Shown piece by piece: positions 25,722 through 62,990 of a stretch of DNA of 64,000 bases; the stretch's first letter is position 1; every line of letters starts with the position of its first letter. The stretch lies in IMG/VR virus record IMGVR_UViG_3300028800_000066, positions 8,207 to 72,206 of that record; one strand, written 5' to 3'. Below the pieces are notes generated by a model. It worked only from the letters and a program-made list of their open reading frames with translations, ran no database searches and was not told the DNA's origin. Source of the stretch: a virus (taxonomy: Duplodnaviria; Heunggongvirae; Uroviricota; Caudoviricetes). The position numbers and the translations under genes were made by a program.

Positions 25722-26547
25722 GTTGGTTTACCGCCTTTGGCAAAATTTGTCTTCGTTGTGCTTGTAGTTTTGAATCTTCACTTTGTTCTTTAACAGTCTT
25801 TAGAAATTCTTCCTTTCCATATTTTCTTATAAATTCATCAGGGTCTTTCGCACCCTTGAGTACAATCAAAAAAACCTCAACTTCTTTATTGAGCCTTATA
25901 TTTAGAACATTGTTCTTTTCACCAACAAAGAAGTTGGCGCTTCTTTTATTAAAACTAGCCATCGCTTTCCTACCACCCTCATCGTTATCAAATATTAGAT
26001 ATATTCTTGAGGTATATCTTGAAAGCAAATTGTAGTGTTCTTTTGTAAAAGCTGTTCCCTGGCAACCAACAGTATTTTCTAATCCCACTGTATGGGCAGT
26101 GATTACATCAGCATTTCCCTCATACACATAAGCTTTGTTTAACTCACGAATCATTCTTATGGCAAAATTCAATCCGTAAAGATATCTACCTTTATCATAG
26201 GCAGTATTAAAATACTTCGGTTTGTCATCTGCAAGAGTTCTTCCGGTAACAGCAATTAATTTACCATGAGTGTTCCAGACAGGAAAAATCACTCTGTTAT
26301 AAAGAAAGGTATTTCCCTTCTCATTCATAACACGAGCGTCTAGCAAGTCATCTTTGTCATATCCGCGCTTTAACAAAGCGGCAAACAATTGTGAATTTTT
26401 ACCTTGGGGAAAGAATCCCAGCCGCCATTTAGCAATAATTGTTGAATCCCAACCGCGACTGAGATAATAGTCTTTCGCTGTCTGTGTTAAATTTTTATCA
26501 GTAAATTCTACGACAGCATCAAATACGCTTTTCGTAATTAATGGCAT
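25699..26547 (-). CDS. DNA primase (TOPRIM domain, DnaG-like)
   Basis: EGNADVITAHTVG...IYLIFDNDEGGRKA (TOPRIM E...DxD motifs). Confidence 0.6.
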   Translation of the reverse strand: MPLITKSVFDAVVEFTDKNLTQTAKDYYLSRGWDSTIIAKWRLGFFPQGKNSQLFAALLKRGYDKDDLLDARVMNEKGNTFLYNRVIFPVWNTHGKLIAVTGRTLADDKPKYFNTAYDKGRYLYGLNFAIRMIRELNKAYVYEGNADVITAHTVGLENTVGCQGTAFTKEHYNLLSRYTSRIYLIFDNDEGGRKAMASFNKRSANFFVGEKNNVLNIRLNKEVEVFLIVLKGAKDPDEFIRKYGKEEFLKTVKEQSEDSKLQAQRRQILPKAVNQHAKKRNV

Positions 26548-27128
26548 TACCCTATTTCGATGTGAATGAATGTTGATGGGATAAACTTACAAAAATATTT
26601 GTCGGAATCTTTGTTATAATGGAAGAAGATATTGTTTTTAGAAGCCTTCTCTGCATTCACATAAACAACAACATTTCTGCCACTAGGCAATTTGGAACGA
26701 TTGTCTACCAAGCCAAATTGAACTGCACTAAATTGAAGTCCGCCTTTAGACACATTGAAAAAATCATTTTTATCAATGCATCCAAACAAATCTTTGGGTG
26801 TCTTCTCGATTCTTTCAAAAGATTCTGGAACATTCAGGTTTAAAATGACAGTGTGACCAAACTTCGCCTTGACCTTCATTCCATCGAAATAGAATAAATT
26901 CGCCGCATACTTTTTGGTCACACTAATCAATTCATCTTGAGTAAGCTTAAGCTTAAAGCGTTTATCGATGGACGATAAAACCTTAGTAGTTTCGGCGTAT
27001 CCATCTTGGTCCAGGGTAAGACCAGCAACTTTAGGCTTATGCCTTAATACGAACACCATAAAGCGACAAATGTTTTTGTATTTATCGACTAAGCTCTCTG
27101 TGGTGCCAATCTGTTTATTTTTATCCAC
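26547..27128 (-). CDS. hypothetical protein
   Basis: ORF. Confidence 0.5.
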   Translation of the reverse strand: MDKNKQIGTTESLVDKYKNICRFMVFVLRHKPKVAGLTLDQDGYAETTKVLSSIDKRFKLKLTQDELISVTKKYAANLFYFDGMKVKAKFGHTVILNLNVPESFERIEKTPKDLFGCIDKNDFFNVSKGGLQFSAVQFGLVDNRSKLPSGRNVVVYVNAEKASKNNIFFHYNKDSDKYFCKFIPSTFIHIEIG

Positions 27129-29177: not shown

Positions 29178-29369
29178 TTAAGCCTCTGCAACTTTCTTGA
29201 AATTCTTCAAAAAATATTCATACGCGCTCTCATTGACTCTATTTTCACCTTCATAACTCCAGTATACGGTGAAGCTATAGACATCAACTCTTTGAACAAT
29301 AACGTCAGGACGATTAATAATGTTAATTAATCTCCACTTTTGTCCATTCTTAATCTGCGTCTCGTCCAT
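29178..29369 (-). CDS. hypothetical small protein
   Basis: ORF. Confidence 0.35.
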   Translation of the reverse strand: MDETQIKNGQKWRLINIINRPDVIVQRVDVYSFTVYWSYEGENRVNESAYEYFLKNFKKVAEA

Positions 29370-30234
29370 TTACTTTAGCGTCTCGGAAATCATAGCCACC
29401 TTCGCGTCTTAGCTTCAAAAAGGCTCTACGCAACTTCTCAAGCGCCCTCTCTTCAATTTGCCTTACACGTTCAGAAGTAGTCCCAACAACCTCTACAATA
29501 TCCTTCAAGGTCATTAGATTATCTGAATCACTGAAATATCTAAGGACAATAATTTCACGTTCCCTATCATTAAGCTTTTCGTAAATGATTCCCAAAAGTT
29601 GTTCCCGATTTATCTTGTTGATAACAACCTGTTCCGGAGTCGGCTGAGTGTCACGAATGACATTCAACAATAAAGGCTTTCCATCCGACTTGTCACCATT
29701 AGCTTCCTGATGAATGCTGATGACCTTAATTTCAGTCATCACATTGTCGTTATCAATATACTTTCTCTTAAAAGTCTCGCTCTGGAAAAGTTTGTTCTTC
29801 AAGAATTCTGAATTGCTTGATTCGTCATCAAGGTCCAGAATCTCTCTGTATTTCTTATAGGAATAGTTCATGAATTGAACGTTCCTGGGTACAGTCACAA
29901 CAGACCTCTGGCAACCTTCAAAAATGTATTTGTAAACCCAATAGAAAAGATAGGTAGAAAAGGCAGTATCCTTTTCCAAATCAAACCTGTCTAATGCATC
30001 GAAGAATCCAAGAACACCATTCTGAAAGCAATCATCGGGGTCAGTATACATCTTAGAAAATTTCATAGAAATCTTCTTGATATAGCGAATATTGTTAAGG
30101 AAGATTTTCTCCCTTAAAACAAGCTTCTTCTCTTCATCAACTTCAGCCTTGTAAGCTCTGATTAATTCTCTGACTTCATCCTTGGAAATGAAATCTTGAG
30201 AAAGCTGGTCGTGAAGTATTTTGTTTTCTGACAT
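29350..30234 (-). CDS. sigma-70 family RNA polymerase sigma factor
   Basis: Region 2 (DDCFQNGVLGFFDALDRFD...YLFYWV) and region 4 (REREIIVLRYF...LKDIVEVVGTTSERVRQIEERALEKLRR). Start moved to MSENK (GAGGA RBS). Confidence 0.65.
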   Translation of the reverse strand: MSENKILHDQLSQDFISKDEVRELIRAYKAEVDEEKKLVLREKIFLNNIRYIKKISMKFSKMYTDPDDCFQNGVLGFFDALDRFDLEKDTAFSTYLFYWVYKYIFEGCQRSVVTVPRNVQFMNYSYKKYREILDLDDESSNSEFLKNKLFQSETFKRKYIDNDNVMTEIKVISIHQEANGDKSDGKPLLLNVIRDTQPTPEQVVINKINREQLLGIIYEKLNDREREIIVLRYFSDSDNLMTLKDIVEVVGTTSERVRQIEERALEKLRRAFLKLRREGGYDFRDAKVNGRDAD

Positions 30235-30241
30235 TCTATCC

Positions 30242-30661
30242 TCAGAAGGTAGAGTCGTGTCTGTTTGAGAATTTCTTTCCATCTTTATAACCCAGCGCAT
30301 ACATTTGGAGTGTATTCTCGGCTAGTGATTCGAAAATATAATAGTCGTAATCACCATTGCTTGCCAATTCATACGCCTTGTCATAGAATGCCAAAACGGT
30401 AGCATCTACAGCAAGGTCGTTAGTTCCTCTGTATGTATCAATCTTTTCTTTAATCTGTGTGGCGTGATTTTTGATGTCTCTTTGATTTTCTAGCTCAACA
30501 TCTTTTGCGATGGAGTAGATTATCTTATCTTCTCTATACTTAGCATGATTCAATTGGATTTGCATGTATCCCACATATCCAACCAAAAAAGTGAGTAAGA
30601 GTATTGTGGGTGTTATAGTTTTCTTCCATTTCCTGAGCACTAGCTTGAGTCTGTAAAGCAT
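30242..30661 (-). CDS. hypothetical membrane-anchored protein
   Basis: N-terminal TM helix. Confidence 0.4.
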   Translation of the reverse strand: MLYRLKLVLRKWKKTITPTILLLTFLVGYVGYMQIQLNHAKYREDKIIYSIAKDVELENQRDIKNHATQIKEKIDTYRGTNDLAVDATVLAFYDKAYELASNGDYDYYIFESLAENTLQMYALGYKDGKKFSNRHDSTF

Positions 30662-30995: not shown

Positions 30996-31010
30996 TATTT
31001 ACCTTAATTG

Positions 31011-31359
31011 TGGAGGCGGTGGGAATCGAACCCACGTCCAAACAACTTTCCAAATTCAATCTACGTGTGTGTTCGGTTTTGCAGTCCGACAACTGTATTC
31101 GTTTTGTCCGTTTCGTTTTCATCTTAGCAGGGCAGAGTTATAACTGTCAGACTAATAAACTCTTACACTGAGCATCCTAAAGCGGCTCTGAAATTCACAC
31201 CTATAGGAGTCGGTGGTCAGAGTAGTCGCTATTAAGCGGCTAGTAGTTCCATTTCTTCGGCATTTCAATTTGTCTGCAAAGGTTTTTAGAGGGCCTTCAC
31301 GACAACTCCCTCACACGCATGAATGTTGTACTGTTATCTGTCGAAACCAAGTCGCCCCC
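31011..31359 (-). ncRNA. ssrA: tmRNA (SsrA)
   Basis: 5' GGGGGCGACUUGGUUUCGACAG. 3' tRNA-like end GGACGUGGGUUCGAUUCCCACCGCCUCCA. Internal tag reading frame ...GCC GAA GAA AUG GAA CUA CUA GCC GCU UAA UAG (AEEMELLAA). Confidence 0.8.
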
Positions 31360-31496: not shown

Positions 31497-32426
31497 CTAC
31501 TCGTCCTTATCCTCGGCCTTAGCGGCGGCGGGAGCCGCCTTGTGACCGTGGCTGATGAGTGAATCGGTATTAATCAAGATGTTACCAGCCTGACCGCCAG
31601 AAACCATCAGAGGATAAACACCATCCCACTTCTCAACCTTTTTGCTCTCAATCAACTCGCGGGTCAAGGAAGCCGACAACTCGCGGTTAGCCATAGCCTG
31701 AGCCTTAGCGCGAATCAGGACAGCCTGAGCTTCACCGTTAGCAACAGCCACAGCCTTTTCGGCCTCGGCCTTTGACTGAGCAACCTCGTTTTCAATCTGC
31801 TGAGCCTTTTGGACGGCGGCATTCTTAGCATTCAAGGCCGCAGTCACACTCTCGGGCAGACGGAAAGCACCAATCAGAGAAAGGTCATCCACGACAATAC
31901 CTTCGGGGGCAACCTGGGCACGAACATCCTTGGTGACGGCGGTAATAAACTCCACCTTCTTGGGCCCGTAAATCTCGCTGACCTGATACTTAGTAGCTTC
32001 CATGTTCATGGCATTACGGACGAAATTGTGCAACTGCTTATCACGAATCTCATCGTTGCCTTCACGGAATTTCTGGAACAGGTCAGAAATCTTCGCCACA
32101 TCGTAATGATAAGTAATGGCGATATCGCAATTCACGACCTGACCCTCAGCCGTCTGAATATTAAAACTCTCATTCGTAGGGCTACCTTCGCTGGGATTGG
32201 CGGTCCAGCTATAATTCTGCTGGAAAGTGGGGAACGGATAAAGTTCCTCATTCACACCGATGTAATAACGCCCAGGCGTAAGAACCTCATTCGAAACACC
32301 CTTCGAACCGCCAGTCAGATAAACCTTCACACCAACATAACCAGCGGCGACCTTCGTGCAACCAGTGGAAAACGCCATCGACATGACGACGAAAGCCACC
32401 AGCATCAAGCTAGTATATTTACGCAT
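31497..32426 (-). CDS. SPFH/band-7 (HflC/prohibitin-like) lipoprotein
   Basis: Lipobox LAFSTGC. SPFH-like core, Ala-rich coiled coil. GC about 50 percent, far above the rest of the window. Confidence 0.75.
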   Translation of the reverse strand: MRKYTSLMLVAFVVMSMAFSTGCTKVAAGYVGVKVYLTGGSKGVSNEVLTPGRYYIGVNEELYPFPTFQQNYSWTANPSEGSPTNESFNIQTAEGQVVNCDIAITYHYDVAKISDLFQKFREGNDEIRDKQLHNFVRNAMNMEATKYQVSEIYGPKKVEFITAVTKDVRAQVAPEGIVVDDLSLIGAFRLPESVTAALNAKNAAVQKAQQIENEVAQSKAEAEKAVAVANGEAQAVLIRAKAQAMANRELSASLTRELIESKKVEKWDGVYPLMVSGGQAGNILINTDSLISHGHKAAPAAAKAEDKDE

Positions 32427-38347: not shown

Positions 38348-38579
38348 AGTCTAATACTGGCTTGCTTACAGCTTCTAACATTTTTTCAATATCATACTTT
38401 AAATCAGAAACCTCTTCTCCCGTCATTTCTACAGAGTTTTCAGAGATTCCGTTGGGATTTCCATCCTTATCATACCATACTGTGTGAATGGCAAAATAAG
38501 TATAACCATCAGGATAAATCTTGTTTAATGATTCAGCGACGGGTTTGTTACGCTTGATTAGTCTGTAATTCCATCCCAT
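38280..38579 (-). CDS. hypothetical protein
   Basis: ORF. Confidence 0.35.
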   Translation of the reverse strand: MGWNYRLIKRNKPVAESLNKIYPDGYTYFAIHTVWYDKDGNPNGISENSVEMTGEEVSDLKYDIEKMLEAVSKPVLDYAIFEEMEKKHAPVESDNRSDS

Positions 38580-39687
38580 TTTTTCCTCGTTTGAAATTAC
38601 CGACCTTATAGGCCAATTGTAATTTCCGAACTTCTTCCTGTTCCTCTTTGCTGAAACTCAATCCAGCTTTCACAGCGTAACGTAATTGATTGTTGAAAAG
38701 ATTTCCGCACGTACTTTCTGAAATGCTTAAAGTTTTTGCGATTTCAGGATAACTGAATCCCTTTAGAATCATTTCTCTAGCTGAGCGAATAATCTCAATC
38801 GAGAATTTTTGTTGAGCCTTAGAAAGATTATCCAAATTCGTGTCACTAATCCTTCTCTTAGCAAGAGAAATGTTGGCTCTTGCTTCTTCCGAGAAAACGC
38901 GGCCATTATTGTTTCTTCCATTACAAGACAAGTTCTCATCCAGATTTTCTGTGTGCATGAGAATACGCAATCTACGGAAAGCTATAAAAGTGATTTGACG
39001 AGCACGTTCAGTTGTCAATCCCATCACAACAGCCATTTGCTTATAGGTTTTGTGATTAAAATAGTATTCTCGGATTGCCATGCGTTCCTTGATGGTTAAC
39101 TTATTGTTGATTACCTTGATAAGCTTCGTCCGTAAATCTTTATCATCTAACTCTTCTGCCAAGTTATCTTCAATCTCAACAGTCTCATTATCCGGAATCA
39201 CATCGTTATAAGAACGATTAGTCCCATCATCAGAAAGCAAGGGAGCGTTTAGATAAATCAACCTATCATTCATGTGAGCCCTGGCTTCTTCCTTATGATT
39301 CTCATAATCACCAGTAGGAATTTTCAGGATGTGATTAGCTCTCATGCAATGTTGCATCTTCTGATTAATCCAGTATGCGGAATAAGTCAAGAATTTAAAC
39401 TTACGATTAACTTTAAACTTTTCAAGACTATGCATAAATCCGATAACGCCAGCATTAAAGAAATCATCAACTTCGATACTGGGATTAATCCGGTGAAAAC
39501 GATGTGCTTGTTTACGAATAAAACGAATATGATTCTGGAAAATTAATTCTCTGAATCTATATTTGTCATCTTCGTTCTTAGCACTTTTATATTGTTTAAT
39601 CAATTTAAGAATCTCTGGATACTTTAAAACCTTCTGCTTAAGCAGAAAAATCATTTCAGGAGATTCTTTACTGGTATCAAACGACAT
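38548..39687 (-). CDS. sigma-70 family sigma factor with extra C-terminal HTH
   Basis: Region 2-like FNAGVIGFMHSLEKF...YSAYWINQ. Region 4-like ERMAIREYYF...MAVVMGLTTERARQI. Additional SYPEIAKTLSISESTC HTH. Confidence 0.6.
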   Translation of the reverse strand: MSFDTSKESPEMIFLLKQKVLKYPEILKLIKQYKSAKNEDDKYRFRELIFQNHIRFIRKQAHRFHRINPSIEVDDFFNAGVIGFMHSLEKFKVNRKFKFLTYSAYWINQKMQHCMRANHILKIPTGDYENHKEEARAHMNDRLIYLNAPLLSDDGTNRSYNDVIPDNETVEIEDNLAEELDDKDLRTKLIKVINNKLTIKERMAIREYYFNHKTYKQMAVVMGLTTERARQITFIAFRRLRILMHTENLDENLSCNGRNNNGRVFSEEARANISLAKRRISDTNLDNLSKAQQKFSIEIIRSAREMILKGFSYPEIAKTLSISESTCGNLFNNQLRYAVKAGLSFSKEEQEEVRKLQLAYKVGNFKRGKNGMELQTNQA

Positions 39688-41470: not shown

Positions 41471-42325
41471 TTATTCAAGATGTTCAACTACACTTCTCAA
41501 GATTTTAGCGGTGGTCTGTCTCAAAGTTCTGTGATGTTTAACCACGCCATAACCATGATACTCTTTATTCATTTCAATCAAAAGCTTGTGAGCGGCTTCC
41601 CTATCTGGACCATGAGGAAGTTGAGTCTTTGTATAAAGTTCATCACAAAGAGCTTCGAGCCTTTTTGCTTCTTCTAGAAAACGTTCCTTGCTCCATTCAC
41701 CCTTTTTGACGGTTAGAACAAGCTGGTTTTCTTTTAGAGGAAGCGTGATTTTGCCAGTTGACAAAAGCTCATTAGCCTCAAGATACAATCTAAGAGCGTG
41801 AGAAGCCATCTTAGTATCATATCCAAACTTCTGAATCAATTCTTGTCTTCCACTTCCATTATCTTCGCCACGCTGTAGTCTCTGGACCTGAGTGTGGCTA
41901 TAACCTTTAAAGCTGTGATAGCTTTTCTTGGACAAGAAGATTTCTTTGTTATCAAAAAGCTTCTGCCCTAGAGGATGTACGTATAACCTGCAATTCTCCG
42001 GAACAAATAATGTTTCTAAAGTATTCGGATTGTTATTTAGAAGCAATTCCATAAACTTTGGAAGTGCATACAATGTGCAATCCATATCAGCGGAAGTATT
42101 CTTCTTTCCAGAACCCGTATCGTTGGTTCTGAATTCTACCTGTTCGATGTTCTTCAATCCCAAAAGATACTCTTCGTCAGGCATGAATACACCAACAAAG
42201 TCCTGGTCGCTCTTGCCTGGGATATTGGTTCCATACATGACCGACCCAACACGTAGGAATAGCAAGCAGTTTTCGACTGCCATCTTCCTCTCGACTGTGT
42301 TTTGTAGAAGTTCTGTATGTTTCAT
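41471..42325 (-). CDS. Pol-beta superfamily nucleotidyltransferase
   Basis: GSVMYGTNIPGKSDQDFVGVF (GS...[DE]xD nucleotidyltransferase signature). Driven by consensus promoter P1. Confidence 0.55.
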   Translation of the reverse strand: MKHTELLQNTVERKMAVENCLLFLRVGSVMYGTNIPGKSDQDFVGVFMPDEEYLLGLKNIEQVEFRTNDTGSGKKNTSADMDCTLYALPKFMELLLNNNPNTLETLFVPENCRLYVHPLGQKLFDNKEIFLSKKSYHSFKGYSHTQVQRLQRGEDNGSGRQELIQKFGYDTKMASHALRLYLEANELLSTGKITLPLKENQLVLTVKKGEWSKERFLEEAKRLEALCDELYTKTQLPHGPDREAAHKLLIEMNKEYHGYGVVKHHRTLRQTTAKILRSVVEHLE

Positions 42326-44276: not shown

Positions 44277-44687
44277 TTAGCTGACATCCTGCAATCTACT
44301 AGTCTTGGATTCAAGAGTCTTTTCCAATTTCTTCTTTCCTACTTCTGAATTAATTCCCTTAAGCTTGTCAATTTCGGCTTGAAGTCTAGCCACATCACCA
44401 AGCTTACGCTTTAATTCTTTTTCCTTAGCCTTCTCTTCTTTAATTCGAAGAGCATCTAAATACTCTTGATACTTTCTGAGTCTTTCATTAAACTCTGCGT
44501 CTGTCTCTGGTCTATCAACAACTACTTCAACTCTTCCATATCCATCGTGTGAAAAAGTCAAGTCATCTAGACCACGCACGTTGGCGGCAGTTATTGCTTC
44601 CATTACATCAATAACCCTTCTTCCATTGATGCCTGGAAAAGCAACTATAACTTGTCTTACTCTATTCTTCTTCTTTGGTTCCTTCAT
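44277..44687 (-). CDS. hypothetical coiled-coil protein
   Basis: ORF. Confidence 0.5.
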   Translation of the reverse strand: MKEPKKKNRVRQVIVAFPGINGRRVIDVMEAITAANVRGLDDLTFSHDGYGRVEVVVDRPETDAEFNERLRKYQEYLDALRIKEEKAKEKELKRKLGDVARLQAEIDKLKGINSEVGKKKLEKTLESKTSRLQDVS

Positions 44688-44700
44688 GATTACCTCTCGG

Positions 44701-44788
44701 TAGTCGTGTAGGGAATCGAACCCTAGTTAGGCTGTCATCTACAGCTAGGAGTTTATAAGGCTCCCTCGGTGCCACACCTCGCACGACC
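44701..44788 (-). tRNA. 88-nt type-II tRNA with anticodon loop CTTATAA (TAT, Ile AUA, by canonical fold), identity uncertain
   Basis: Good acceptor and T arms. 22-nt variable arm with gctgt/acagc stem. AC stem has a C-A mismatch. A73. Confidence 0.5.
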
Positions 44789-44792
44789 ATGA

Positions 44793-45869
44793 TTACTGTT
44801 CTCGTTCTCTTTGTCTTTCAATGAAATTAAAAATATCTGTATTCTCTCTAAACGCTGGATTACTTCCTATCATCTCACGAAATTCCTGTTCACTTCCCAT
44901 GAACGTATATTCACATTCCATATCTTCCGACATTTCAAAGTTATGCATATTGTATAGCATTTTACTGTATTCTAATCCACCATCATCCCAACGACCCTCT
45001 CTATCCCAACCTCCCCTAGGTATGATTGAGACACAAATAAATTCATCAAAGTCTTCTCTATATTGTTCCTCATTGTCTCTGGCTCTTGCCCAATAATATC
45101 TGTGTTCTGGAGTATAACCTTCTGAAGCTATACTTGTTCCATATAATTCGGCAAGATATCTTGTAAAGCCACCACTTGAATCAAATAAAGGATGAGCGTT
45201 GAGAAGTCTTTCAGCTTCTTCTCTTGAAGCTGTTGTATAAAATTCGTGGTCCCCATCTTGTGCAAAACCAAGTTCTTGCAAAGCATTTCTTAGTGTTTGC
45301 CCAATTTCTGCATATGTTCTATAATTCATGTCATTAGTATAGCGCGTATCTATATAACCAGTTGTTTCAAATACGTTCTTCTCAGCAAATGCAAAATAAG
45401 ATACATTTGTACCATCATTCAAACGTTCTTGCGAAGCGTTTTCATCATACGTAAACAAATATCTAGCCGTAGCCTTTGAAGACCTTAGAGCGGCATTGGC
45501 TGTAGCTACTTTGCTATGAACTATAACCGCTTTTTCCCAATCAGGATATTTTGCTTTCAAGTCTTCCACTTCTTTACAAACACCAGTGGAATGTAATTCT
45601 TTAATCTTTTCAGCTAACTCTTTACCGATTCCCTTTATGGAAGTCAGTTTATCGTTCTTCAAAAACTCTTCCAAAGAAACCGTAAGAACAATTTCAGCGG
45701 CAGTTTTAACAGCCTTGATTCTGAAATGGTTAGACTTATCTAGTTTCAATAGCTTAGCAAAATCTAAAAAGGTTGCATGAGCTAGGGTGCTTAGACCAGT
45801 GCTAACTTCGTCTAAGGCGATATCATTTAATCTGCCACGTTGAACTGGAACTTTTTCTACTTTAGCCAT
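44793..45869 (-). CDS. hypothetical protein with N-terminal helix-hairpin-helix
   Basis: LTSIKGIGKELAEKI HhH motif. Rest unknown. Confidence 0.5.
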   Translation of the reverse strand: MAKVEKVPVQRGRLNDIALDEVSTGLSTLAHATFLDFAKLLKLDKSNHFRIKAVKTAAEIVLTVSLEEFLKNDKLTSIKGIGKELAEKIKELHSTGVCKEVEDLKAKYPDWEKAVIVHSKVATANAALRSSKATARYLFTYDENASQERLNDGTNVSYFAFAEKNVFETTGYIDTRYTNDMNYRTYAEIGQTLRNALQELGFAQDGDHEFYTTASREEAERLLNAHPLFDSSGGFTRYLAELYGTSIASEGYTPEHRYYWARARDNEEQYREDFDEFICVSIIPRGGWDREGRWDDGGLEYSKMLYNMHNFEMSEDMECEYTFMGSEQEFREMIGSNPAFRENTDIFNFIERQREREQ

Positions 45870-46554: not shown

Positions 46555-46642
46555 TGACCAAGGAGAGATTCGAACTCTCACGCCCATTACAGGCAACGGT
46601 ATCTAAAGCCGTCATGTCTACCTATTTTTTCATCACTCGGCC
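46555..46642 (-). tRNA. type-II tRNA, probable Leu (TAG) with oversized D-loop
   Basis: Acceptor ggccgag/cttggtc (2 G-U). AC stem acggc/accgt with loop TTTAGAT. Variable arm tgcctgtaatgggcgt. Fold less certain than the others. Confidence 0.45.
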
Positions 46643-47562: not shown

Positions 47563-47595
47563 AAATTTGTCAAGCCCTTTTATCGTTTCATAATG

Positions 47596-47669
47596 TGAAC
47601 CAGATGGGACTCGAACCCATATAACTCCCTTACGTTATCCCGCTTCGGAGGCGAGAACGGTACTGGTCC
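47596..47669 (-). pseudogene. tRNA-like element (74 nt) without a D-arm; possible tRNA pseudogene or tRNA mimic
   Basis: Good acceptor ggaccag/ctggttc and T-arm atggg-ttcgagt-cccat. The internal region folds as ctcgc-CTCCGAA-gcggg (anticodon-like CCG) enclosed by cgtt/aacg, so there is no room for a D-arm. Confidence 0.35.
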
Positions 47670-47670
47670 A

Positions 47671-47826
47671 TCACTTTTTCTTTCTAGCTTCTTTCAATCT
47701 CTTTTTTCTATCTTCGATTGCTTCTTGTAATTTCTTAGCGAATTCATCATTTCTTGGTCTGTTTCTGGATTCTGGTCTTACATTGATTTCACTTGGAATT
47801 GGTTTAATTGGCTCAATTTTATCCAT
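47671..47826 (-). CDS. small Lys/Arg-rich ORF (51 aa)
   Basis: MDKIEPIKPIPSEINVRPESRNRPRNDEFAKKLQEAIEDRKKRLKEARKKK. Immediately downstream of the kinase gene. Confidence 0.35.
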   Translation of the reverse strand: MDKIEPIKPIPSEINVRPESRNRPRNDEFAKKLQEAIEDRKKRLKEARKKK

Positions 47827-50169: not shown

Positions 50170-50556
50170 TTACCAATCCAATGTTCCAGCATTAACACAG
50201 GCTACACCAAAAACAGCGCCAACAGCTACATCCAATAACTCTGCCTTGAAATGAGTTTTGTCGTTTTTATGTAAAGCTTCCATCATTTCACGATGTTCTT
50301 CATCTACTACACCAGCGATTTCGTGAGTTGAAGCAAATGTTCCATAACCTTTTTGTTTAAGTCTACGATTAAGTTCTAATCTGAATTCCATAACAGCTTG
50401 TTCAATTTGTTCTTGCGTAATTTCCAGTCTAGCATTAGCCATTTGTTCTCCACGCGCAGGAACTTCCATGTCCGAATCCAGTCCCGCCATAAGGGCATCA
50501 ATTTCGCTCTGACTTAATATATCGTCCACTCTATGCTCTGAGAAGATTTCGCTCAA
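50170..50556 (-). CDS. MazG-like all-alpha NTP pyrophosphohydrolase (putative)
   Basis: ASTHEIAGVVDEEHREMMEAL...ELLDVAVGAVF acidic helix pattern. Confidence 0.45.
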   Translation of the reverse strand: MSEIFSEHRVDDILSQSEIDALMAGLDSDMEVPARGEQMANARLEITQEQIEQAVMEFRLELNRRLKQKGYGTFASTHEIAGVVDEEHREMMEALHKNDKTHFKAELLDVAVGAVFGVACVNAGTLDW

Positions 50557-51550
50557 CGGCTTGACCGTGCATCCAATGTTTCACGGTCTGGATGTGATTC
50601 TTTCTCACATATTTAGCCGCAGACTTTCTAAAATCACCGTATGAAAACTTGTCAGCAATTCTGATTACATATCCTTCTTTGCTCTGCCAATTTTCTTTGT
50701 TGTACAAAGCTTTAATTTTTGTCTCATCATAGATTCCATCATACAAAACTGGAACGCTTTGGATGTTCAAAAGATTAAACCAAGAAGCCGTATCATCCCA
50801 ATCCAGGCATTCGTTCTTTTCATTCCAAACCGAGAATCCCATGAAATAGGTGGGGAGATTATCGTAGCCAATTGAGTGTTTGGCCCAAAGATTCTCACCG
50901 CAGACTCTCCAACCTTCGGGGATATCGTTAGCGATTGCCGCCCAAAAGTTCTTTACCCAATTTCTAGAAACATGAGTGTCACTGTTTATACTTCTTGCAT
51001 GGATGTGGTCACGATACATTGTCGTGTTTTCTCCATCCATTTTTTCTGTAACAATAACTCTTTTACCTTCAAAACTTTTCATGTTCTCAATCATGCGGTC
51101 ATCATCGTTCATGTTTTCCGACCAAGGAACATGGTATGTTCTAGGATATTTTACATAACTGGTAAACTGTCCGAGAACATCAGCTAAAATCTTTTGGACG
51201 CTCAAATCGTAAAACAACTCACCTTTAAGTCTTTGACCATTGGGAAGAATAATGTTTCCCCATTTATCGTAAGTCTGGTCGTGATAGAAATGTTCTGGAA
51301 GAACTGGTTTAGTAATTCCGCACTTCTCACGAACTTGTTCCACAGAAATATTGGTCTTTTCACATTCAATGTGATGTTCTTCGCAAACCGAAGCGCCATT
51401 GTTTAGAAAATAACCGCCATTTCCCCAAATCCTACGTTCAATTATATGGTGTGCATCTGCCGCTGGTTCTCCACAAAATACGCACTTATGACCATCTCTT
51501 TTGAAGACGCCCTCACGGAATTCATCACGAGTGAGCAATTTGGATTCCAT
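50531..51550 (-). CDS. HNH nuclease fused to ATP-dependent RNA ligase-like nucleotidyltransferase
   Basis: N-terminal CVFCGEPAADAHHII...CEEHH. Ligase motif I TEKMDGEN (KxDGxN), motif IV EGYVIR, motif V AAKYVRK. Confidence 0.55.
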   Translation of the reverse strand: MESKLLTRDEFREGVFKRDGHKCVFCGEPAADAHHIIERRIWGNGGYFLNNGASVCEEHHIECEKTNISVEQVREKCGITKPVLPEHFYHDQTYDKWGNIILPNGQRLKGELFYDLSVQKILADVLGQFTSYVKYPRTYHVPWSENMNDDDRMIENMKSFEGKRVIVTEKMDGENTTMYRDHIHARSINSDTHVSRNWVKNFWAAIANDIPEGWRVCGENLWAKHSIGYDNLPTYFMGFSVWNEKNECLDWDDTASWFNLLNIQSVPVLYDGIYDETKIKALYNKENWQSKEGYVIRIADKFSYGDFRKSAAKYVRKNHIQTVKHWMHGQAVERNLLRA

Positions 51551-53217: not shown

Positions 53218-53244
53218 ATGCTTACTACTTCTACATTACAACTG

Positions 53245-53273
53245 ATTATATCACATTTCGCTCTATTTGTCAA
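53245..53273 (-). promoter_or_regulatory. consensus sigma70 promoter P3 (TTGACA-17-TGaTATAAT) for Asn tRNA array
   Basis: rc: ggcTTGACAaatagagcgaaatgTGaTATAATcag. Confidence 0.75.
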
Positions 53274-53281
53274 GCCAAAAG

Positions 53282-53318
53282 AAAACCCCTCCGAACTTTT
53301 TTTAAGGTCCGGAGGGGT
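53282..53318 (-). terminator. rho-independent terminator abutting promoter P3
   Basis: CCCCUCCG-GACCUUAAAAAAAGUU-CGGAGGGG followed by UUUUCUUUUGG. The U-tail overlaps the -35 of P3. Confidence 0.7.
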
Positions 53319-53492
53319 TAATTTAGTGGTTGATGATTGCAGTTTAAACCATTAAACTAGACCCTCTTAGACAATAGATTTCTATTACCCAACCAGAGGT
53401 TAGATATTGTTCGTCCATTGGTTAAAGAGGTTAAAGTCTTCATGATTAAACCTTCCGTCTATTTGTGTAGACAAAGTAGTGCATCTACTTCA
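53319..53492 (-). ncRNA. candidate about 200-nt small transcript between ext -10 promoter and terminator (sRNA or 32-aa micro-ORF)
   Basis: Bounded by the TGaTATAAT element (53498-53506) and the terminator 53282-53318. Contains hairpins GUAG-AUGCA-CUAC and AGGUUUAA...UUUAACCU. Also a possible 32-aa ORF with GGAAGG RBS. Confidence 0.35.
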
Positions 53493-53497
53493 TTACT

Positions 53498-53526
53498 ATT
53501 ATATCAAAAATTATAAAATTTTACCA
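53498..53526 (-). promoter_or_regulatory. candidate extended -10 promoter (TGaTATAAT)
   Basis: rc: TGGTAA-17-TGaTATAAT downstream of ORF 53544..53927. Weak -35. Confidence 0.4.
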
Positions 53527-53543
53527 CTTTTTAATACAAATTT

Positions 53544-54017: not shown

Positions 54018-55721
54018 TTAACCCTTGATGAAGTCACTCATCACGGCTGGGGCAGATGAATCGAATCCTACCACGTCTAACATTCCAGCATCGTTAGGGT
54101 CTGCAATCGTGAAATCATTCGTAACCATACCAACCACAACTGACTTGGCATTGTTACTAGACTGCTTGCGATATTCTGCAAGAGCCTGATGTGGGTGAAT
54201 TCTTCCAGCATAAGTCTCGTTATCGGTGTAGACAAAGAAAGCATCTACATCTAACTTATTCTGCTTTGCATAAACCATCGGCAAAGAGCAATCAGTTCCA
54301 CGGAAAGGAAGATTATTGATGACTGAGATTACATCATCCAATCTCTTCTTTCCAGAAATGTTCAAGTCAATGAACTCTGTCGAGAATCCCTTGATATAGA
54401 CGTTCTTCTCAACCTTTGCAGTAACCATTGCCATAGCCGCGCTTACCACTCTTGGCGTAAGACCTGGAATACCAGAAATTGAACCGCCGTCCATTGAACC
54501 AGACACGTCCAAGGCCAACATGATGTTCTTTCCAGTTGGCTCAACATTATCAAATGCTGTGTAGAAAGCAGAATCCAATGCGTCCACAACTGTCTGGACC
54601 GGAGTCCAGGAATTTCCACCACGCTCACCGTGACCCTGCTGATAAACCTTCAAGGCCGACAATAACTGAATCGGATGCACTCTCGCCTTCTTCAAAGCCT
54701 CTACATTAGCAAGCTTTTCAGCGACAAGCTTTGAACCCTGTGAAAGCGGTGCAATCAATCCAACTCTTGTCATTGTTGCAATATTACGAATCATTGCAGT
54801 CAATGGCATGTGCGGAAGTAATGCATCCCACACTTCAATGGTGTTAAGTAACTCTGTAGGAACAGCTTCACGAGGAAGTTCGTGTTCTCTAATCAATCCA
54901 ACAATTTCAGAAGCAGTCGTTGCCCTCTGAGCCTGTTCGAAAGCATTAATCATCGGGTGGATATTGACGATAAGCTTTCCTTCATTGTCATAGTGCGACT
55001 TTACCCATGACTGAATCTGCTCGTGCTTCTCGGAATACTTCACCTTTGCCGAATCGTTCTTGGCAGAGACAGGGGCATCCTTACCAGCCTTATACTTATT
55101 CCACGCAACCCACTGATAGATATCATTACGTGCGGCATCAGCGGTCTTCAAGTGAGCAAGACGCAACGCATCACGATGTTCAAAACCTTCACGATTACGA
55201 TACTTAATAACCTGTAATGCAAGGCCATCCAAGTTCTTCTCGTTATACCAACGCTGAACTGCCTTACGCAATCCAGTACCAGTTCCCTTGCCAATGGTGT
55301 CCGCAATCGACAAGAACTGGAACAAATGTGTGGCGATTCTGCATACCTTTGAAAGGTTCTGATATGCATACGCACGAGTAGCCGCATCACCATGCTTTAC
55401 GACAAGCGCAAGAGCAAACACAGCGGGGTCATTCTTTGGAGCGCGACCATTGTGAGAAATTTCCACAATAGTATCAACAGTCTTGCGACCATTTTCCTTC
55501 ACGCACTCCAAGATGCACTTCGCACTGTCCTGTGTCATCTTGTGCTCGGATGCATAATACGAGCCACCCTCGTTTCCAAGAATCAAGAAACGGTTTAAAC
55601 GGGTCCAGTTGTCTACCTTGAATGTAAAGCCACCCGCGCTGTTTGGAACCTGATTGCTTCCGAATACCTTCTCGGACTGGGGTGTAACCTTAGTTGAAAC
55701 GTGCGAAGCATAGTTTGACAT
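54018..55721 (-). CDS. vWA-domain protein with Ro60/TROVE-like architecture (Rsr-like, inferred)
   Basis: C-terminal vWA MIDAS LALDVSGSMDG...T...D. About 400-aa helical N-terminal module. 567 aa matches the Ro60 size and domain order. GGAAGAGGAG RBS. Own consensus promoter. Confidence 0.5.
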   Translation of the reverse strand: MSNYASHVSTKVTPQSEKVFGSNQVPNSAGGFTFKVDNWTRLNRFLILGNEGGSYYASEHKMTQDSAKCILECVKENGRKTVDTIVEISHNGRAPKNDPAVFALALVVKHGDAATRAYAYQNLSKVCRIATHLFQFLSIADTIGKGTGTGLRKAVQRWYNEKNLDGLALQVIKYRNREGFEHRDALRLAHLKTADAARNDIYQWVAWNKYKAGKDAPVSAKNDSAKVKYSEKHEQIQSWVKSHYDNEGKLIVNIHPMINAFEQAQRATTASEIVGLIREHELPREAVPTELLNTIEVWDALLPHMPLTAMIRNIATMTRVGLIAPLSQGSKLVAEKLANVEALKKARVHPIQLLSALKVYQQGHGERGGNSWTPVQTVVDALDSAFYTAFDNVEPTGKNIMLALDVSGSMDGGSISGIPGLTPRVVSAAMAMVTAKVEKNVYIKGFSTEFIDLNISGKKRLDDVISVINNLPFRGTDCSLPMVYAKQNKLDVDAFFVYTDNETYAGRIHPHQALAEYRKQSSNNAKSVVVGMVTNDFTIADPNDAGMLDVVGFDSSAPAVMSDFIKG

Positions 55722-57256: not shown

Positions 57257-57760
57257 TTATTTCTTTGAATCGTTTTCTCTTATCTGTTCAATCGTAAAAC
57301 CATTGTTTATATAAACAACAAAATCAATCTTATATGTATCTGAAACTCTATTCAAAATACCTTCAACAACATTCCAATTTCCTCCAGCTAATCCGCATCC
57401 AATCAATGGAAGAGCAAGAGTCTTTAGGCTCTTTGAAAGCATATCAAGACAAACACCTGACAGGCTTTTTTCTAAAGCTCCGTAATCTAAATCCATTCTT
57501 CCAACATTTCTTCCCCTATAATCAAACTGGGAATAAATATTGTATCCAAATTTTCCATCAGGCAATTGCAAGTAAGTATAAGCGCCCAATTTCTGCTGTG
57601 GAGTAAATGGACTTTTACAATCCGCAATTTCATACATCGCAGGCCATTTAGCTCTTACCGCTTTCGCAACACCACTACCCATTGTAGATTGGCAATTACA
57701 CCCGTGACCGAATGCATCTTCTGTGAAAGCAAGTAAATCACCAGTCTTATAAGTAATCAT
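57257..57760 (-). CDS. macro-domain protein (ADP-ribose binding/hydrolase-like)
   Basis: GDLLAFTEDAFGHGCNCQSTMGSGVAKAV and later IGCGLAGG resemble MacroD-type motifs (GD..x..DA..N..x..G.GV.. / G.G..G). Confidence 0.55.
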   Translation of the reverse strand: MITYKTGDLLAFTEDAFGHGCNCQSTMGSGVAKAVRAKWPAMYEIADCKSPFTPQQKLGAYTYLQLPDGKFGYNIYSQFDYRGRNVGRMDLDYGALEKSLSGVCLDMLSKSLKTLALPLIGCGLAGGNWNVVEGILNRVSDTYKIDFVVYINNGFTIEQIRENDSKK

Positions 57761-59105: not shown

Positions 59106-59176
59106 TGGCCCCAAGGGGAATCGGACCCCTGCCCTTACATTGAGAATGTATTGTCCTGCCACTAGACTATGGGGCC
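59106..59176 (-). tRNA. tRNA-Glu (CTC), alternative anticodon reading possible
   Basis: With a 4-bp AC stem plus A-A, the 7-nt loop is TTCTCAA (CTC). A 6-bp stem/5-nt loop alternative exists. T-loop is TCCGATT. Confidence 0.55.
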
Positions 59177-59739
59177 ATTCTTGCTAAACGTTTTTTTAGT
59201 AACTCTCGACTTCTAGTAATTCGACTTCTGGCAGTAGTTTCTGAAACTCCCAAAATTTCCGCCGCATCCCGATAAGACCTGAAACCATCTTCTTCCATGA
59301 AAGCGTAAAAACATTTTCTATGTTTAGATGGAAGATTTTCAATTTCAGTCTTAACAAGCACCAACATATCTTGACTACTCAAACGTTTATCTATATCAAA
59401 TTTTCTGTCGTGAAGAAATTCTTGTGCGGTAAATCCGCTTTCTGCTCTGTCTTCATAAACCGCACCGCCATCAAGAGAAATTGTAAATCCTTTTCTCTTG
59501 AAAGATTGTTCTGCTCTAAAAAAGTTTGAGCAAGCGTTCTTGGTGATTGAATAAAGCCAAGTTTCCAGCTTGCTATCGTTTCTAAAAGTGTCTAGGCTTT
59601 TGTAGAAATTTAAAAATATATCATGAGCTAATTCTTCGGATTGCTCACGACTTGTATATCTTCTACAGTAACCCTTCACAAACTTTAATTTTCTCTTATA
59701 CATGTCGTTAAAGAGTTCTTCTTTTTCCATTTGTTCCAT
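59167..59739 (-). CDS. ECF-type (sigma-70 family) sigma factor
   Basis: Region 2 AHDIFLNFYKSLDTF...ETWLYSITKN. Region 4 YRDAAEILGVSETTARSRITRSRELLKKRL. Confidence 0.65.
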   Translation of the reverse strand: MEQMEKEELFNDMYKRKLKFVKGYCRRYTSREQSEELAHDIFLNFYKSLDTFRNDSKLETWLYSITKNACSNFFRAEQSFKRKGFTISLDGGAVYEDRAESGFTAQEFLHDRKFDIDKRLSSQDMLVLVKTEIENLPSKHRKCFYAFMEEDGFRSYRDAAEILGVSETTARSRITRSRELLKKRLARMAP

Positions 59740-62354: not shown

Positions 62355-62990
62355 TTACGCTTTTTCCTCGAACTTTGTGTAAATATCCTGTAATTCCCTA
62401 GACATTTGTGTATAATGTTTACCGATTAAACCTTTCTTTCTTAACCATTTCAAATCGTTTGAAAGATAGGCATTCATTTCATCAATCAATTGTTTCTTGG
62501 AATAACCCTTCTTTATCAAGAAGGCGCTTAATTCTTTAACGTCTTTATCTTTAAAATAATTCTTAATTACTTTTCTATATTCAGGAACCATTGAAAAAGA
62601 AGCGTGTGTTACTTCATGATTGATTGTTTCTTTTTCAGTTCTATCTCTCATGAATGTTCCGATAATGTAAAATTCTCCCTTTACATTACGAAACAAATCC
62701 AAGAACTGTTGTTCTTTATTGCTAAGAGGATTGAACTTTCCTTCATAGAATGGTTTTAAATCTTTTGAAGGAACATTATATCCAGTCCAATCTTCATAGT
62801 ACGTGAATCTCTTTTTGTTTTGAGTCTTCATATACCATTTCTTAAATTGCGCTAACGTAAAAACTTTACCTGAAAATTCTGGTGATTCAAAATATTCTTC
62901 GAACCTCAACAAAGTGGAAGTCAAATCGTATCTTGTCTCAAATCTGACATGATACACGTAAGAGTTGATTTTGGTGAGTTCAATTTTCAT
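62355..62990 (-). CDS. hypothetical protein (partner of small RNA-ligase-like gene)
   Basis: ORF translationally coupled to the upstream ligase-like gene. Confidence 0.5.
   Translation of the reverse strand: MKIELTKINSYVYHVRFETRYDLTSTLLRFEEYFESPEFSGKVFTLAQFKKWYMKTQNKKRFTYYEDWTGYNVPSKDLKPFYEGKFNPLSNKEQQFLDLFRNVKGEFYIIGTFMRDRTEKETINHEVTHASFSMVPEYRKVIKNYFKDKDVKELSAFLIKKGYSKKQLIDEMNAYLSNDLKWLRKKGLIGKHYTQMSRELQDIYTKFEEKA

Follow-up and report, generated by a model that had tools for sequence, protein, structure and literature searches.

Introduction

In bacteria a long variable arm is normally the property of the leucine, serine, tyrosine and selenocysteine tRNAs. In these canonical class II tRNAs an extra stem-loop lies between the anticodon and T arms, and it is separated from the T stem by fewer unpaired nucleotides than in the tRNAs described below. 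The reading of AUA, for its part, is taken to need lysidine, or else an IleRS and a ribosome that have co-adapted.

The dedicated minor AUA decoder of bacteria and phages is tRNA-Ile2, a class I tRNA whose CAU anticodon is converted to the lysidine form by TilS and which phages supply when they use ATA more than their host does (PMC10688831). A second solution is found in Mycoplasma mobile (tRNAIle2-UAU), in a Bacillus subtilis tilS-bypass mutant and in Lactobacillus, where a tRNAIle-UAU decodes AUA without lysidine (PMC3575796; PMC13602947). The E. coli IleRS charges a UAU tRNA ~360-fold less well than the lysidine-modified (LAU) form, and on E. coli ribosomes an unmodified UAU anticodon reads AUG as well (PMC3575796). 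Isoleucine identity depends strongly on A73 and the anticodon, with t6A37 as a determinant for bacterial IleRS (PMC9976931).

Two described groups join the UAU anticodon to a long variable arm. The nematode nev-tRNA-Ile(UAU) breaks the rule that such arms belong to Leu, Ser and Tyr tRNAs (PMC3333845); it is eukaryotic, derived from tRNA-Leu, charged with leucine and weakly expressed. The allo-tRNA(UAU) species of Mukai et al. (2017) are bacterial (Acidobacteria and others) and combine a long variable arm with a compact D arm like that of tRNA-Sec; UAU is the most abundant allo-tRNA anticodon, and the genes lie in mobile or toxin-antitoxin loci (PMC5389517). The UAU species showed no activity when assayed for suppression in E. 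coli (PMC5389517), for which the anticodon was changed to CUA, a change that would also abolish any anticodon-dependent charging with isoleucine.

Here we describe a tRNA(UAU) gene in a 64,000-nt stretch of phage DNA (the window), together with its relatives in phages and bacteria. Like the bacterial UAU tRNA-Ile species it combines UAU with A37, and the role that we propose for it, that of a TilS-independent AUA decoder, is the same. Unlike those class I tRNAs with their short variable loops, however, the variable arm of the family described here is a hairpin of 4-6 bp whose loop is conserved, and whereas M. mobile relies on a co-adapted IleRS (Arg865) and ribosome, the family sits on mobile elements of hosts such as E. 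coli, whose IleRS is averse to UAU. With tRNA-Ile2 it would share the part of a dedicated minor AUA decoder, but its U34 is encoded. The window tRNA is thus likely to resemble the M. mobile UAU tRNA-Ile and the phage tRNA-Ile2 in function while being built differently, on a class-II-like plan.

Compared with the canonical class II tRNAs, the family has the same extra stem-loop, and one of its subfamilies (A) also has the Leu/Tyr-like D arm, with a 3-bp stem and a large loop; it differs in its anticodon, in the 4-6 unpaired nucleotides between the variable arm and the T stem and in the conserved sequence of the arm loop. The hallmarks of nev-tRNAs (a nematode nuclear genome, derivation from tRNA-Leu, an A/B box, charging with leucine) do not fit the family: the context is phage or bacterial, the codon evidence is Ile-like, the D arms are heterogeneous and the arm loop is conserved. 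The published description also sets the allo-tRNAs apart, with their 8/4 or 9/3 acceptor/T arrangement and G73 or U73, from the window tRNA, which is 7/5 with A73; an eighth acceptor pair would have to join C8 to A, which are not complementary, so the 8/4 arrangement is not formed. Acidobacterial members of the family may nevertheless overlap with the allo-tRNA(UAU) of Mukai et al.

Results

Position and structure of the gene

The initial annotation placed an 88-nt type-II tRNA with anticodon loop CTTATAA and anticodon TAT at 44701-44788. These coordinates hold (Table 1); the strand, unnamed there although the loop was quoted in the minus-strand sense, is the minus strand. The type-II description was likewise borne out, its features being kept in more than 200 relatives, as were the good acceptor and T arms, which are read from the sequence as helices of 7 and 5 bp. 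The variable-arm helix had been given as 5 bp: four of these pairs (GCUG/CAGC) stand, and the fifth, U-A, is only possible.

Table 1. Features of the tRNA(UAU) gene and of its immediate surroundings in the window.
Feature	Position	Strand	Basis
tRNA gene, G1 (44788) to discriminator A73 (44701), 88 nt, class-II-like, anticodon UAU	44701..44788	-	ARAGORN; family covariance model; sequence
CC 3' of the discriminator, partial CCA	44699..44700	-	sequence
Acceptor stem, 7 bp, 5' strand GGUCGUG	44782..44788	-	pairs with 44702-44708 (CACGACU)
Compact D arm GGUG-UGG-CACC, 4-bp stem and 3-nt loop, preceded by C8-G-A	44768..44778	-	minimum-energy fold
Anticodon arm, stem GGAG/CUCC, 7-nt loop CUUAUAA (44759-44753)	44748..44764	-	four stem pairs covary in relatives
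Anticodon UAU, complementary to AUA	44755..44757	-	triplet constant in every family set
Variable-arm hairpin GCUG-UAGAUGA-CAGC	44731..44745	-	loop fits family motif Y-A-G-A-U-N-A; stem covaries
Linker CUAAC, 5 nt, variable arm to T stem	44726..44730	-	linker 4-6 nt in nearly all 166 members analysed
T arm UAGGG-UUCGAUU-CCCUA, 5-bp stem	44709..44725	-	sequence; stem covaries
Upstream gene, 358 aa, helix-hairpin-helix domain	44793..45869	-	stop codon 4 nt before tRNA 5' end
Downstream gene, 136 aa	44277..44687	-	GAGAGG ribosome-binding site begins directly after tRNA CC

ARAGORN calls the gene as tRNA-Ile(tat) at 44699-44788 (-). From 44788 to 44699 the RNA reads GGUCGUG CGA GGUG UGG CACC GAG GGAG C CUUAUAA A CUCC UA GCUG UAGAUGA CAGC CUAAC UAGGG UUCGAUU CCCUA CACGACU A CC. 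Besides its two good helices it shows the other marks of a cloverleaf, namely an GTTCGANTC T loop, a 7-nt anticodon loop with U33 and a purine at 37, and a discriminator followed by a site to which CCA can be added; since the base after CC is G, the terminal A would need post-transcriptional addition. The acceptor stem has a G1·U72 wobble and C4-G69, and positions 31 and 39 form a C31·A39 mismatch (44760, 44752).

The gene occupies a 105-nt gap between two ORFs of the same strand, from the stop codon of the 358-aa gene to the ribosome-binding site of the 136-aa gene. A 42-aa ORF that reads through the tRNA (44662-44790) was treated as a chance ORF, because the tRNA explains the region. A database search with the 358-aa protein matched only itself. 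All 41 tRNA genes that ARAGORN finds in the window lie on the minus strand, tRNA(UAU) being flanked by Leu(UAA) and Arg(CCU)/Arg(UCU) tRNAs; a 9-nt direct repeat around the gene, considered as a target-site duplication, was dismissed as only marginal once 41 tRNAs are tested. Megablast with the 3-kb neighbourhood and sensitive blastn with the tRNA against cultured phages gave a tRNA-Leu in S-PM2 as the sole match, and the loci of the nearest tRNA relatives (L071 and L114) have no genes in common with the window.

Performance of generic tRNA models

Taken alone, the window sequence leaves room for doubt. The tRNA(UAU) does not reach the Rfam tRNA gathering score, as the other tRNAs of the window and a tmRNA do, and its best match in a relaxed search of the clan is tRNA-Sec, at 23.1 bits (gathering score 47). 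Its minimum-energy fold has a 9-nt anticodon loop, since the energy model does not allow C31·A39 to pair, and a fold z-score of only -1.67; with introns allowed, ARAGORN proposes Tyr(AUA) with a 2-nt intron. The same program fails to call the copies in phages PhiM1 and ESCO41, and standard tools often miss members of the family.

A large family of relatives

Sequence-pattern scans recovered at least 146 distinct viral relatives and at least 82 distinct relatives in bacterial genomes. The 18-nt anticodon arm has exact matches in 7 IMG/VR contigs, each time within a tRNA-like gene that is long-armed and differs in its acceptor stem, and a looser pattern of anticodon loop plus T loop yielded at least 86 unique sequences, at least 70 of them with at least 6/7 acceptor pairs as expected. 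This pattern presets the loop sequence, and two further searches free of it were run, one keyed to the D-arm sequence of the largest subfamily and the other to the variable-arm loop, the T loop and ACCA. The latter gave, among the matches listed, 106 that were acceptor-paired, and 90 of these have the family anticodon loop, all with U33-UAU and five with G37; the remaining 16, which do not, seem to be ordinary tRNAs, with the motif lying in the anticodon loop or in a variable region that is unpaired.

When 53 relatives were folded together with RNAalifold, the window sequence excluded, the acceptor, anticodon, variable-arm and T stems were all recovered, with compensatory double changes at 17 of the 19 consensus pairs. 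The acceptor pairs show many such changes (G1·U72 is present in about half of the family), and the D-arm stem covaries in the nearest subfamilies (GUGU/ACAC, CGGU/ACCG, CACC/GGUG, CCUC/GAGG). A covariance model built from the same 53 relatives, again with the window sequence left out, scored the window gene at 70.8 bits (E ~1.6e-18) and the next tRNAs of the window, all tRNA-Leu, at 47.5 bits or less; by this model the window holds a single copy of the family. The window tRNA is a divergent member, with at most 67% identity to any relative among the matches listed. The gene is confirmed as real and intact, with a covarying cloverleaf, and as part of a large family. Full-text searches, whose coverage leaves many subscription journals outside, found no account of a tRNA(UAU) family of this kind or of its conserved arm loop, so that the family is apparently undescribed in the literature, with individual genes already annotated as tRNA-Ile in GenBank.

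Register of the anticodon loop

Homologues found through the D arm have anticodon arms such as GCAGA-G CUUAUAC C-UCUGU, in which 31-39 is G-C and the loop has 7 nt, while others have A·A, A·C, A-U or U·G at this position. Among the viral members listed from the search that leaves the anticodon loop free, 46/64 (72%) have a Watson-Crick or G·U pair at 31·39 and 18/64 a mismatch, and the loops are CUUAUAC (24), CUUAUAA (16), UUUAUAU (9) and others, including CUUAUAU. In relatives with a paired 31-39 only U33-UAU-R37 is constant in the loop, and many contain no UAA triplet. Watson-Crick pairing at 31-39 in the relatives therefore fixes a 7-nt loop register with UAU as the anticodon, and the same homologues rule out the readings as a 9-nt loop, as TAA or TTA and as Tyr(AUA) with a 2-nt intron. 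The initial annotation had itself set a 9-nt loop with a TAA anticodon against its own reading; that alternative is not conserved. Mismatches at 31·39 as a class occur in 28-39% of members in the family sets analysed. A search presetting CCTTATAAA had suggested C·A at this position as a family hallmark, an idea that was rejected when unbiased searches gave C·A in 1/64.

Family signature

In an analysis of 166 family sequences, both hairpin loops stayed constant, as did the discriminator and the T loop. A73 is essentially invariant (79/80 in one set, 64/64 in another), a full CCA is encoded in 71/80 viral relatives, and about two thirds of members have U at position 72. The variable arm consists of a covarying stem of 4-6 bp and a 7-nt loop, Y-A-G-A-U-N-A, whose successive positions in 80 viral members are C/U in 79, A in 70, G in 76, A in 77, U in 75, any base at the sixth (A 50, U 18, G 10, C 2) and A in 75. 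The sole alternative arm loop is GGACG, in 4 members. In the decoding loop, positions 37 and 38 differ between members and are less conserved than the matching positions of the arm loop.

The D arms vary by subfamily, being Leu/Tyr-like (3 bp with a large loop), of the ordinary 4-bp class I kind or compact and Sec-like. The small D arm of the window tRNA is common to the closest subfamilies and, as CCUC-CGG-GAGG, to the acidobacterial version, with covarying stems. Where a Leu/Ser-like body had been noted initially, the type-II shape given by the variable arm stands and the D arm does not, not being Leu/Ser-like. The window tRNA carries all the family features: U33-UAU-R37, A73, the arm loop UAGAUGA and the linker CUAAC. 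The breadth of the family and the conserved arm loop (YAGAUNA) both go beyond the initial annotation.

Distribution

Carriers among cultured phages include Pectobacterium PhiM1, Escherichia ESCO41 and ETEP102, Klebsiella KP13-26, Xanthomonas Xoo-sp13 and the Vibrio phages WD615, River4 and Pylo. The family is thus found in phages of E. coli, Klebsiella and Pectobacterium despite the aversion of the E. coli IleRS to UAU. In PhiM1 the gene is annotated as tRNA-Ile and lies between the capsid gene and that of tail tubular protein A, with no other tRNA annotated or found in the 5-kb stretch examined; in ESCO41 it lies 4 nt from a tRNA-Arg(UCU), the sole other tRNA found in the 5-kb stretch examined, and the ESCO41 version is absent from complete E. 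coli genomes. The gene is often unannotated in phages. On phage contigs, the tRNAs that most often lie within 400 nt of it are Leu(UAA), Arg(UCU) and Met(CAU), and the gene's neighbours are tRNAs for rare codons that end in A or U.

The bacterial matches listed come from Acidobacteriota, Rhodobacteraceae, Xanthomonadales, Aggregatibacter, Planctomycetota, Verrucomicrobiota, Saccharibacteria and others. Many of these copies stand in long tRNA arrays, typically, in Acidobacteriota, in the order Asn-Met(CAU)-[UAU]-Val-Ile(GAU)-Lys-Lys-Arg. Isolated bacterial copies adjoin ORFans, a CI-like S24 peptidase, a DNA methylase and an SNF2 helicase, surroundings that are, to judge from this gene content, prophage-like.

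Use and meaning of AUA

At a G+C content of 39%, the window uses ATA 13.2 times per 1000 codons, or for 21% of its Ile codons, which agrees with the earlier remark that an AUA decoder would be useful here. ORFs and tRNAs take up 80% of the window under the standard code, a density that therefore gives no sign of stop-codon recoding.

The meaning of ATA was read from protein alignments. In the terminase large subunit, aligned with 100 homologues of less than 60% identity each, the 11 ATA columns contain I, V and L at 27, 19 and 11 %, as against 31/14/14 for ATT and 38/15/12 for ATC; in the controls, Leu columns hold L at 39 % and Tyr columns Y at 49 %. An all-against-all comparison of ORFs from 219 carrier phage loci (1.94 Mb; 2,642 alignments at 25-65% identity) supplied 5,489 aligned ATA positions, at which I, V and L occur at 36.5, 18.5 and 15.0 %. 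ATT (41.3/19.1/13.9) and ATC (42.6/19.4/13.2) nearly match this profile, whereas Leu codons give L 49-50 and I 11, and ATA is also unlike Val, Met, Tyr and Ser codons. With ATA-ATA pairs removed, the top partner codons are ATT (20%) and ATC (10%). By these profiles, which tell the meaning of ATA and not which tRNA reads it, ATA is an isoleucine codon in the carrier phages, and this argues against a reassignment of the nev-tRNA kind.

Discussion

The reading that we favour, with a probability of about 0.65, is that the window tRNA is an AUA decoder charged with isoleucine without any need of lysidine. A large phage would in this way supply an elongator tRNA that reads the isoleucine codon AUA through an unmodified-type UAU anticodon, and since UAU is encoded, the tRNA would be independent of the host lysidine pathway, in which TilS acts on tRNA-Ile2 (CAU). 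It is probably co-transcribed with the flanking genes and then excised by RNase P together with 3' processing, after which a CCA-adding enzyme would complete its 3' end; the host IleRS would then probably charge it with isoleucine through A73 and A35-U36-A37-A38, and it would supplement a scarce host AUA decoder in a genome where ATA makes up a fifth of the Ile codons.

The charging identity, called unclear in the initial annotation, is narrowed by these results and not closed: ATA is an Ile codon in the carriers, and A73 with A35-U36-A37-A38 fits IleRS. All five of these bases are present in the window tRNA, and position 34 is U instead of G or lysidine. Of the minor E. coli determinants, it has C4-G69 and U12-A23, with A29-U41 at the place of C29-G41; none of the three pairs is conserved across the family. 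Counting against an isoleucine decoder are C8, the 3-nt D loop, the C31·A39 mismatch, the score below the Rfam tRNA threshold and the inactivity of the related allo-tRNA(UAU) species in E. coli suppression (PMC5389517), and the variation at positions 37 and 38 of the decoding loop (five members have G37) is unexpected if IleRS reads that loop. Simple recognition of the anticodon may also be insufficient in enterobacterial hosts, given the ~360-fold bias against UAU and the reading of AUG.

The strongest rival, which we consider unlikely, is a tRNA-like RNA without a role in translation, serving as a decoy or resistant substitute against host anticodon nucleases, or having a regulatory or mobile-element function, as the inactive allo-tRNA(UAU) species may. 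Genes for RNA repair abound in the window (two RNA ligase-like proteins, Tpt1/KptA, RlaP, Ro60 and a macro domain; no Y RNA with an Rfam match was found beside Ro60), the frequent 31·39 mismatch widens the loop, a second window tRNA (46555-46642) also has C31·A39, the conserved arm loop implies a specific binding partner, and Mukai et al. suggest that most allo-tRNA(UAU) are unused in translation (PMC5389517). However, the decoding loop has the canonical U33 and a purine at 37, conservation of the T loop, A73 and CCA is strong, the gene holds the position of the AUA decoder in otherwise complete tRNA arrays and is paired with Arg(UCU) in a small E. coli phage, and ATA is heavily used by the carriers. 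This rival partly merges with the isoleucine decoder, because a nuclease-resistant substitute tRNA would still decode. An improbable alternative is that a synthetase that ignores the anticodon (LeuRS, or SerRS or TyrRS) charges the tRNA through its class-II shape and so inserts a non-cognate amino acid at AUA. The long variable arm and A73, a Leu/Tyr-type discriminator, would suit such an enzyme, but by its anticodon the tRNA is none of the Leu, Ser or Tyr species. Tyrosine identity is determined by G34 and U35, and is unlikely since both are absent; serine identity is unlikely since the typical G73 of tRNA-Ser is absent. LeuRS has more in its favour, namely that the next-best matches to the family model in the window are tRNA-Leu genes and that the class-II UAU tRNAs of nematodes are charged only with Leu (PMC3333845). 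Leucine identity is nevertheless unlikely because of C8, the tiny D loop, the heterogeneous D arms and the codon evidence: beside its A73 the window tRNA carries C8 and a D loop of three nucleotides (UGG), too small for A14, in place of U8-A14 and of G18G19 in a large D loop, D arms differ wholly between subfamilies, and the ATA profile of the carriers, with which the terminase agrees, is far from the ~50 % L of Leu codons. For Aquifex aeolicus LeuRS, core tertiary pairs, U8-A14 included, are described as critical (PMC2377443).

Two further alternatives concern the integrity of the gene itself. A genuine 9-nt anticodon loop (CCUUAUAAA), read as a non-triplet or by frameshifting, or as UAA (Leu), UUA (an ochre suppressor) or, after removal of a 2-nt 'intron', AUA, would account for the minimum-energy fold and the Tyr(AUA) proposal of ARAGORN, and the exact 18-mer arm does recur in 7 viral contigs. 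We regard it as very improbable: 31-39 is paired in 72% of the loop-independent homologues listed, with 7-nt loops such as CUUAUAC, CUUAUAU and UUUAUAU, where the UAA and UUA triplets are missing, and the dense standard-code ORFs bear no sign of stop-codon recoding. Least probable of all is a decayed duplicate of the neighbouring tRNA-Leu(UAA), or a chance cloverleaf. The low Rfam score, the fold z-score and the location between Leu(UAA) and Arg tRNAs might suggest decay or chance, but every stem is intact, a model trained on other genomes gives 70.8 bits, the family-specific arm loop UAGAUGA is present, and the gene fits exactly into its intergenic gap.

Whatever the amino acid, the conserved variable-arm hairpin (YAGAUNA) must, it would seem, be read by a universal host factor. 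Our preferred reading, doubtful though we consider it, is that the arm is a second, non-decoding 'anticodon arm', shaped like the loop of tRNA-Ile(GAU) and offered to IleRS as a surrogate or auxiliary handle. G3-A4-U5 and A7 of the arm loop match G34-A35-U36 and A38 of that tRNA, so that IleRS might read the arm hairpin while the ribosome reads the UAU hairpin, the two perhaps swapping places on the D stem; as an auxiliary handle, the arm would compensate for poor recognition of U34 by an ordinary bacterial IleRS. Consistent with this, the hairpin has the size of an anticodon arm and is followed by a linker of variable-loop size, and the arm-loop positions are more conserved than 37 and 38 of the decoding loop. 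The variant GGACG is still anticodon-like: its GAC is the anticodon of Val, whose identity likewise involves A73 and A35. Against it, position 2 of the arm loop is A and not the equivalent of U33, the equivalent of position 37 varies, and the geometry is only predicted; a comparison with the Ile(GAU) anticodon arms of the same arrays found no sequence identity beyond the loop.

A competing reading is that A4-U5-N6 of the arm loop mimics an AUN codon and may mask the anticodon within the same molecule. A4-U5-N6 (with A7) is complementary to U36-A35-U34 (with U33), the variable base falling at the wobble position, but the invariance of G3 would go unexplained and the GGACG variants would not pair. 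Covariation cannot separate the two readings of the arm, because the anticodon never varies within the family. Among the other long tRNAs (Arg, Thr) of the window and the acidobacterial arrays, no arm loop matches the tRNA's own anticodon or codon. A surrogate identity arm, if real, would explain why one design recurs in phages, in prophage-like regions and in the tRNA arrays of several bacterial phyla, and would make the tRNA a portable AUA decoder that works without TilS and without a UAU-adapted IleRS. Such an arm would moreover introduce a new principle of tRNA recognition and offer a compact part for engineering the reassignment of AUA.

With or without such a role for the arm, this family joins, on mobile elements, a UAU anticodon to an extra hairpin of conserved sequence. 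For the cultured phages of E. coli, Pectobacterium and Klebsiella it poses the concrete question of how U34 is charged by an IleRS with a ~360-fold aversion to it and how misreading of AUG is avoided. Since standard tools often miss the family, phage tRNA counts and analyses of codon supply may undercount the AUA decoder.

The tRNA block and its associated genes

The window carries at least 42 tRNA genes, all of them on a single strand and in an order that is mostly clustered by amino acid, with groups for Ser, Lys (four genes), Glu (three), Asp (two), Ala (two), Pro, Asn (three), Arg, Leu, Gly, Thr and Cys. No tRNAs for Ile(GAU), Met, Val, Phe, Tyr, His or Gln were found within the window; these types may be located past the end of the source contig (64,677 bp). 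A phage-encoded tmRNA, absent from the ARAGORN list for the window, is found at the end of the block, and three genes for sigma-70-family factors, all within 30 kb, are interspersed with it. Genes for RNA repair, coding for Tpt1/KptA, RlaP, an RNA ligase, Ro60/TROVE, a macro domain protein and a second RNA ligase-like protein, are distributed among the tRNA genes on the same strand. Rfam identified no Y RNA near the Ro60 gene. A gap of 325 nt is present at 53218-53543.

Features of the tRNA block and its surroundings (window coordinates)
Feature	Position	Strand	Rfam score (bits)
tRNA block	31387-63985	-	
Tpt1/KptA 2'-phosphotransferase	26547-27128	-	
Sigma-70-family factor	29350-30300	-	
tmRNA	31008-31359	-	116.7
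Band7	31497-32426	-	
Sigma-70-family factor	38548-39687	-	
RlaP nucleotidyltransferase	41471-42325	-	
9-nt direct repeat, downstream copy	44685-44693	-	
tRNA(UAU)	44701-44788	-	
9-nt direct repeat, upstream copy	44788-44796	-	
Class-II tRNA	46555-46642	-	37
'tRNA-Arg(CCG)', 86 nt	47595-47680	-	32
RNA ligase	50531-51550	-	
Ro60/TROVE with vWA domain	54018-55721	-	
Macro domain protein	57257-57760	-	
Sigma-70-family factor	59167-59739	-	
RNA ligase-like protein, second	62987-63610	-	

Context of the tRNA(UAU) gene

The tRNA(UAU) gene is flanked by a direct repeat, GTAATCATG; the preceding gene's stop codon falls within the upstream copy and the next gene's start codon within the downstream copy. 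With the tRNA gene and one copy removed, the two flanking genes would meet at an ordinary, tight junction. None of the 41 tRNAs compared has a longer flanking repeat than this one; its statistical support is marginal only, as 17 of 2,000 random intervals were equally good.

The share of ATA among Ile codons is very uneven between genes of the window: the codon is absent from Ro60 (0/31), Band7 (0/16) and RlaP (0/7), and accounts for 11 of the 43 Ile codons of the terminase. This pattern could result from recent gain from an ATA-poor host, or from differences in expression class.

Unusual tRNAs in the window and at other loci

The class-II tRNA at 46555-46642, for which ARAGORN made no call, has an anticodon stem (GACGG/CCGUU) that encloses CUUUAGAUA, and from its sequence we read it as tRNA-Leu(UAG). 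It has the C31·A39 mismatch in common with tRNA(UAU), and a widened anticodon loop may be something that recurs among the tRNAs of this phage. In the 'tRNA-Arg(CCG)', the acceptor stem has two mismatches, the anticodon stem is 6 bp long and the variable arm forms a hairpin; the status of this gene is doubtful.

Elsewhere, the tRNA-Ile(GAU) genes adjoining members of the tRNA(UAU) family, in bacterial tRNA arrays and one viral contig (loci L223, L232, L257, L319 and L064), have anticodon loops UCGAUAA or CCGAUAA, and thus carry C at position 33 in place of the normally invariant U33. Two class I phage tRNAs of 73 nt from IMG/VR (loci L352 and L386) have the anticodon loops UAGAUAA and CAGAUAA, in which A33 precedes GAU; these loops are identical to the variable-arm loop of the tRNA(UAU) family. 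In Klebsiella phage KP13-26, the tRNA cluster that holds its family member also contains a tRNA annotated as 'tRNA-Pyl' (locus L218, 4544-4618), with the anticodon CUA, of the amber-suppressor type.
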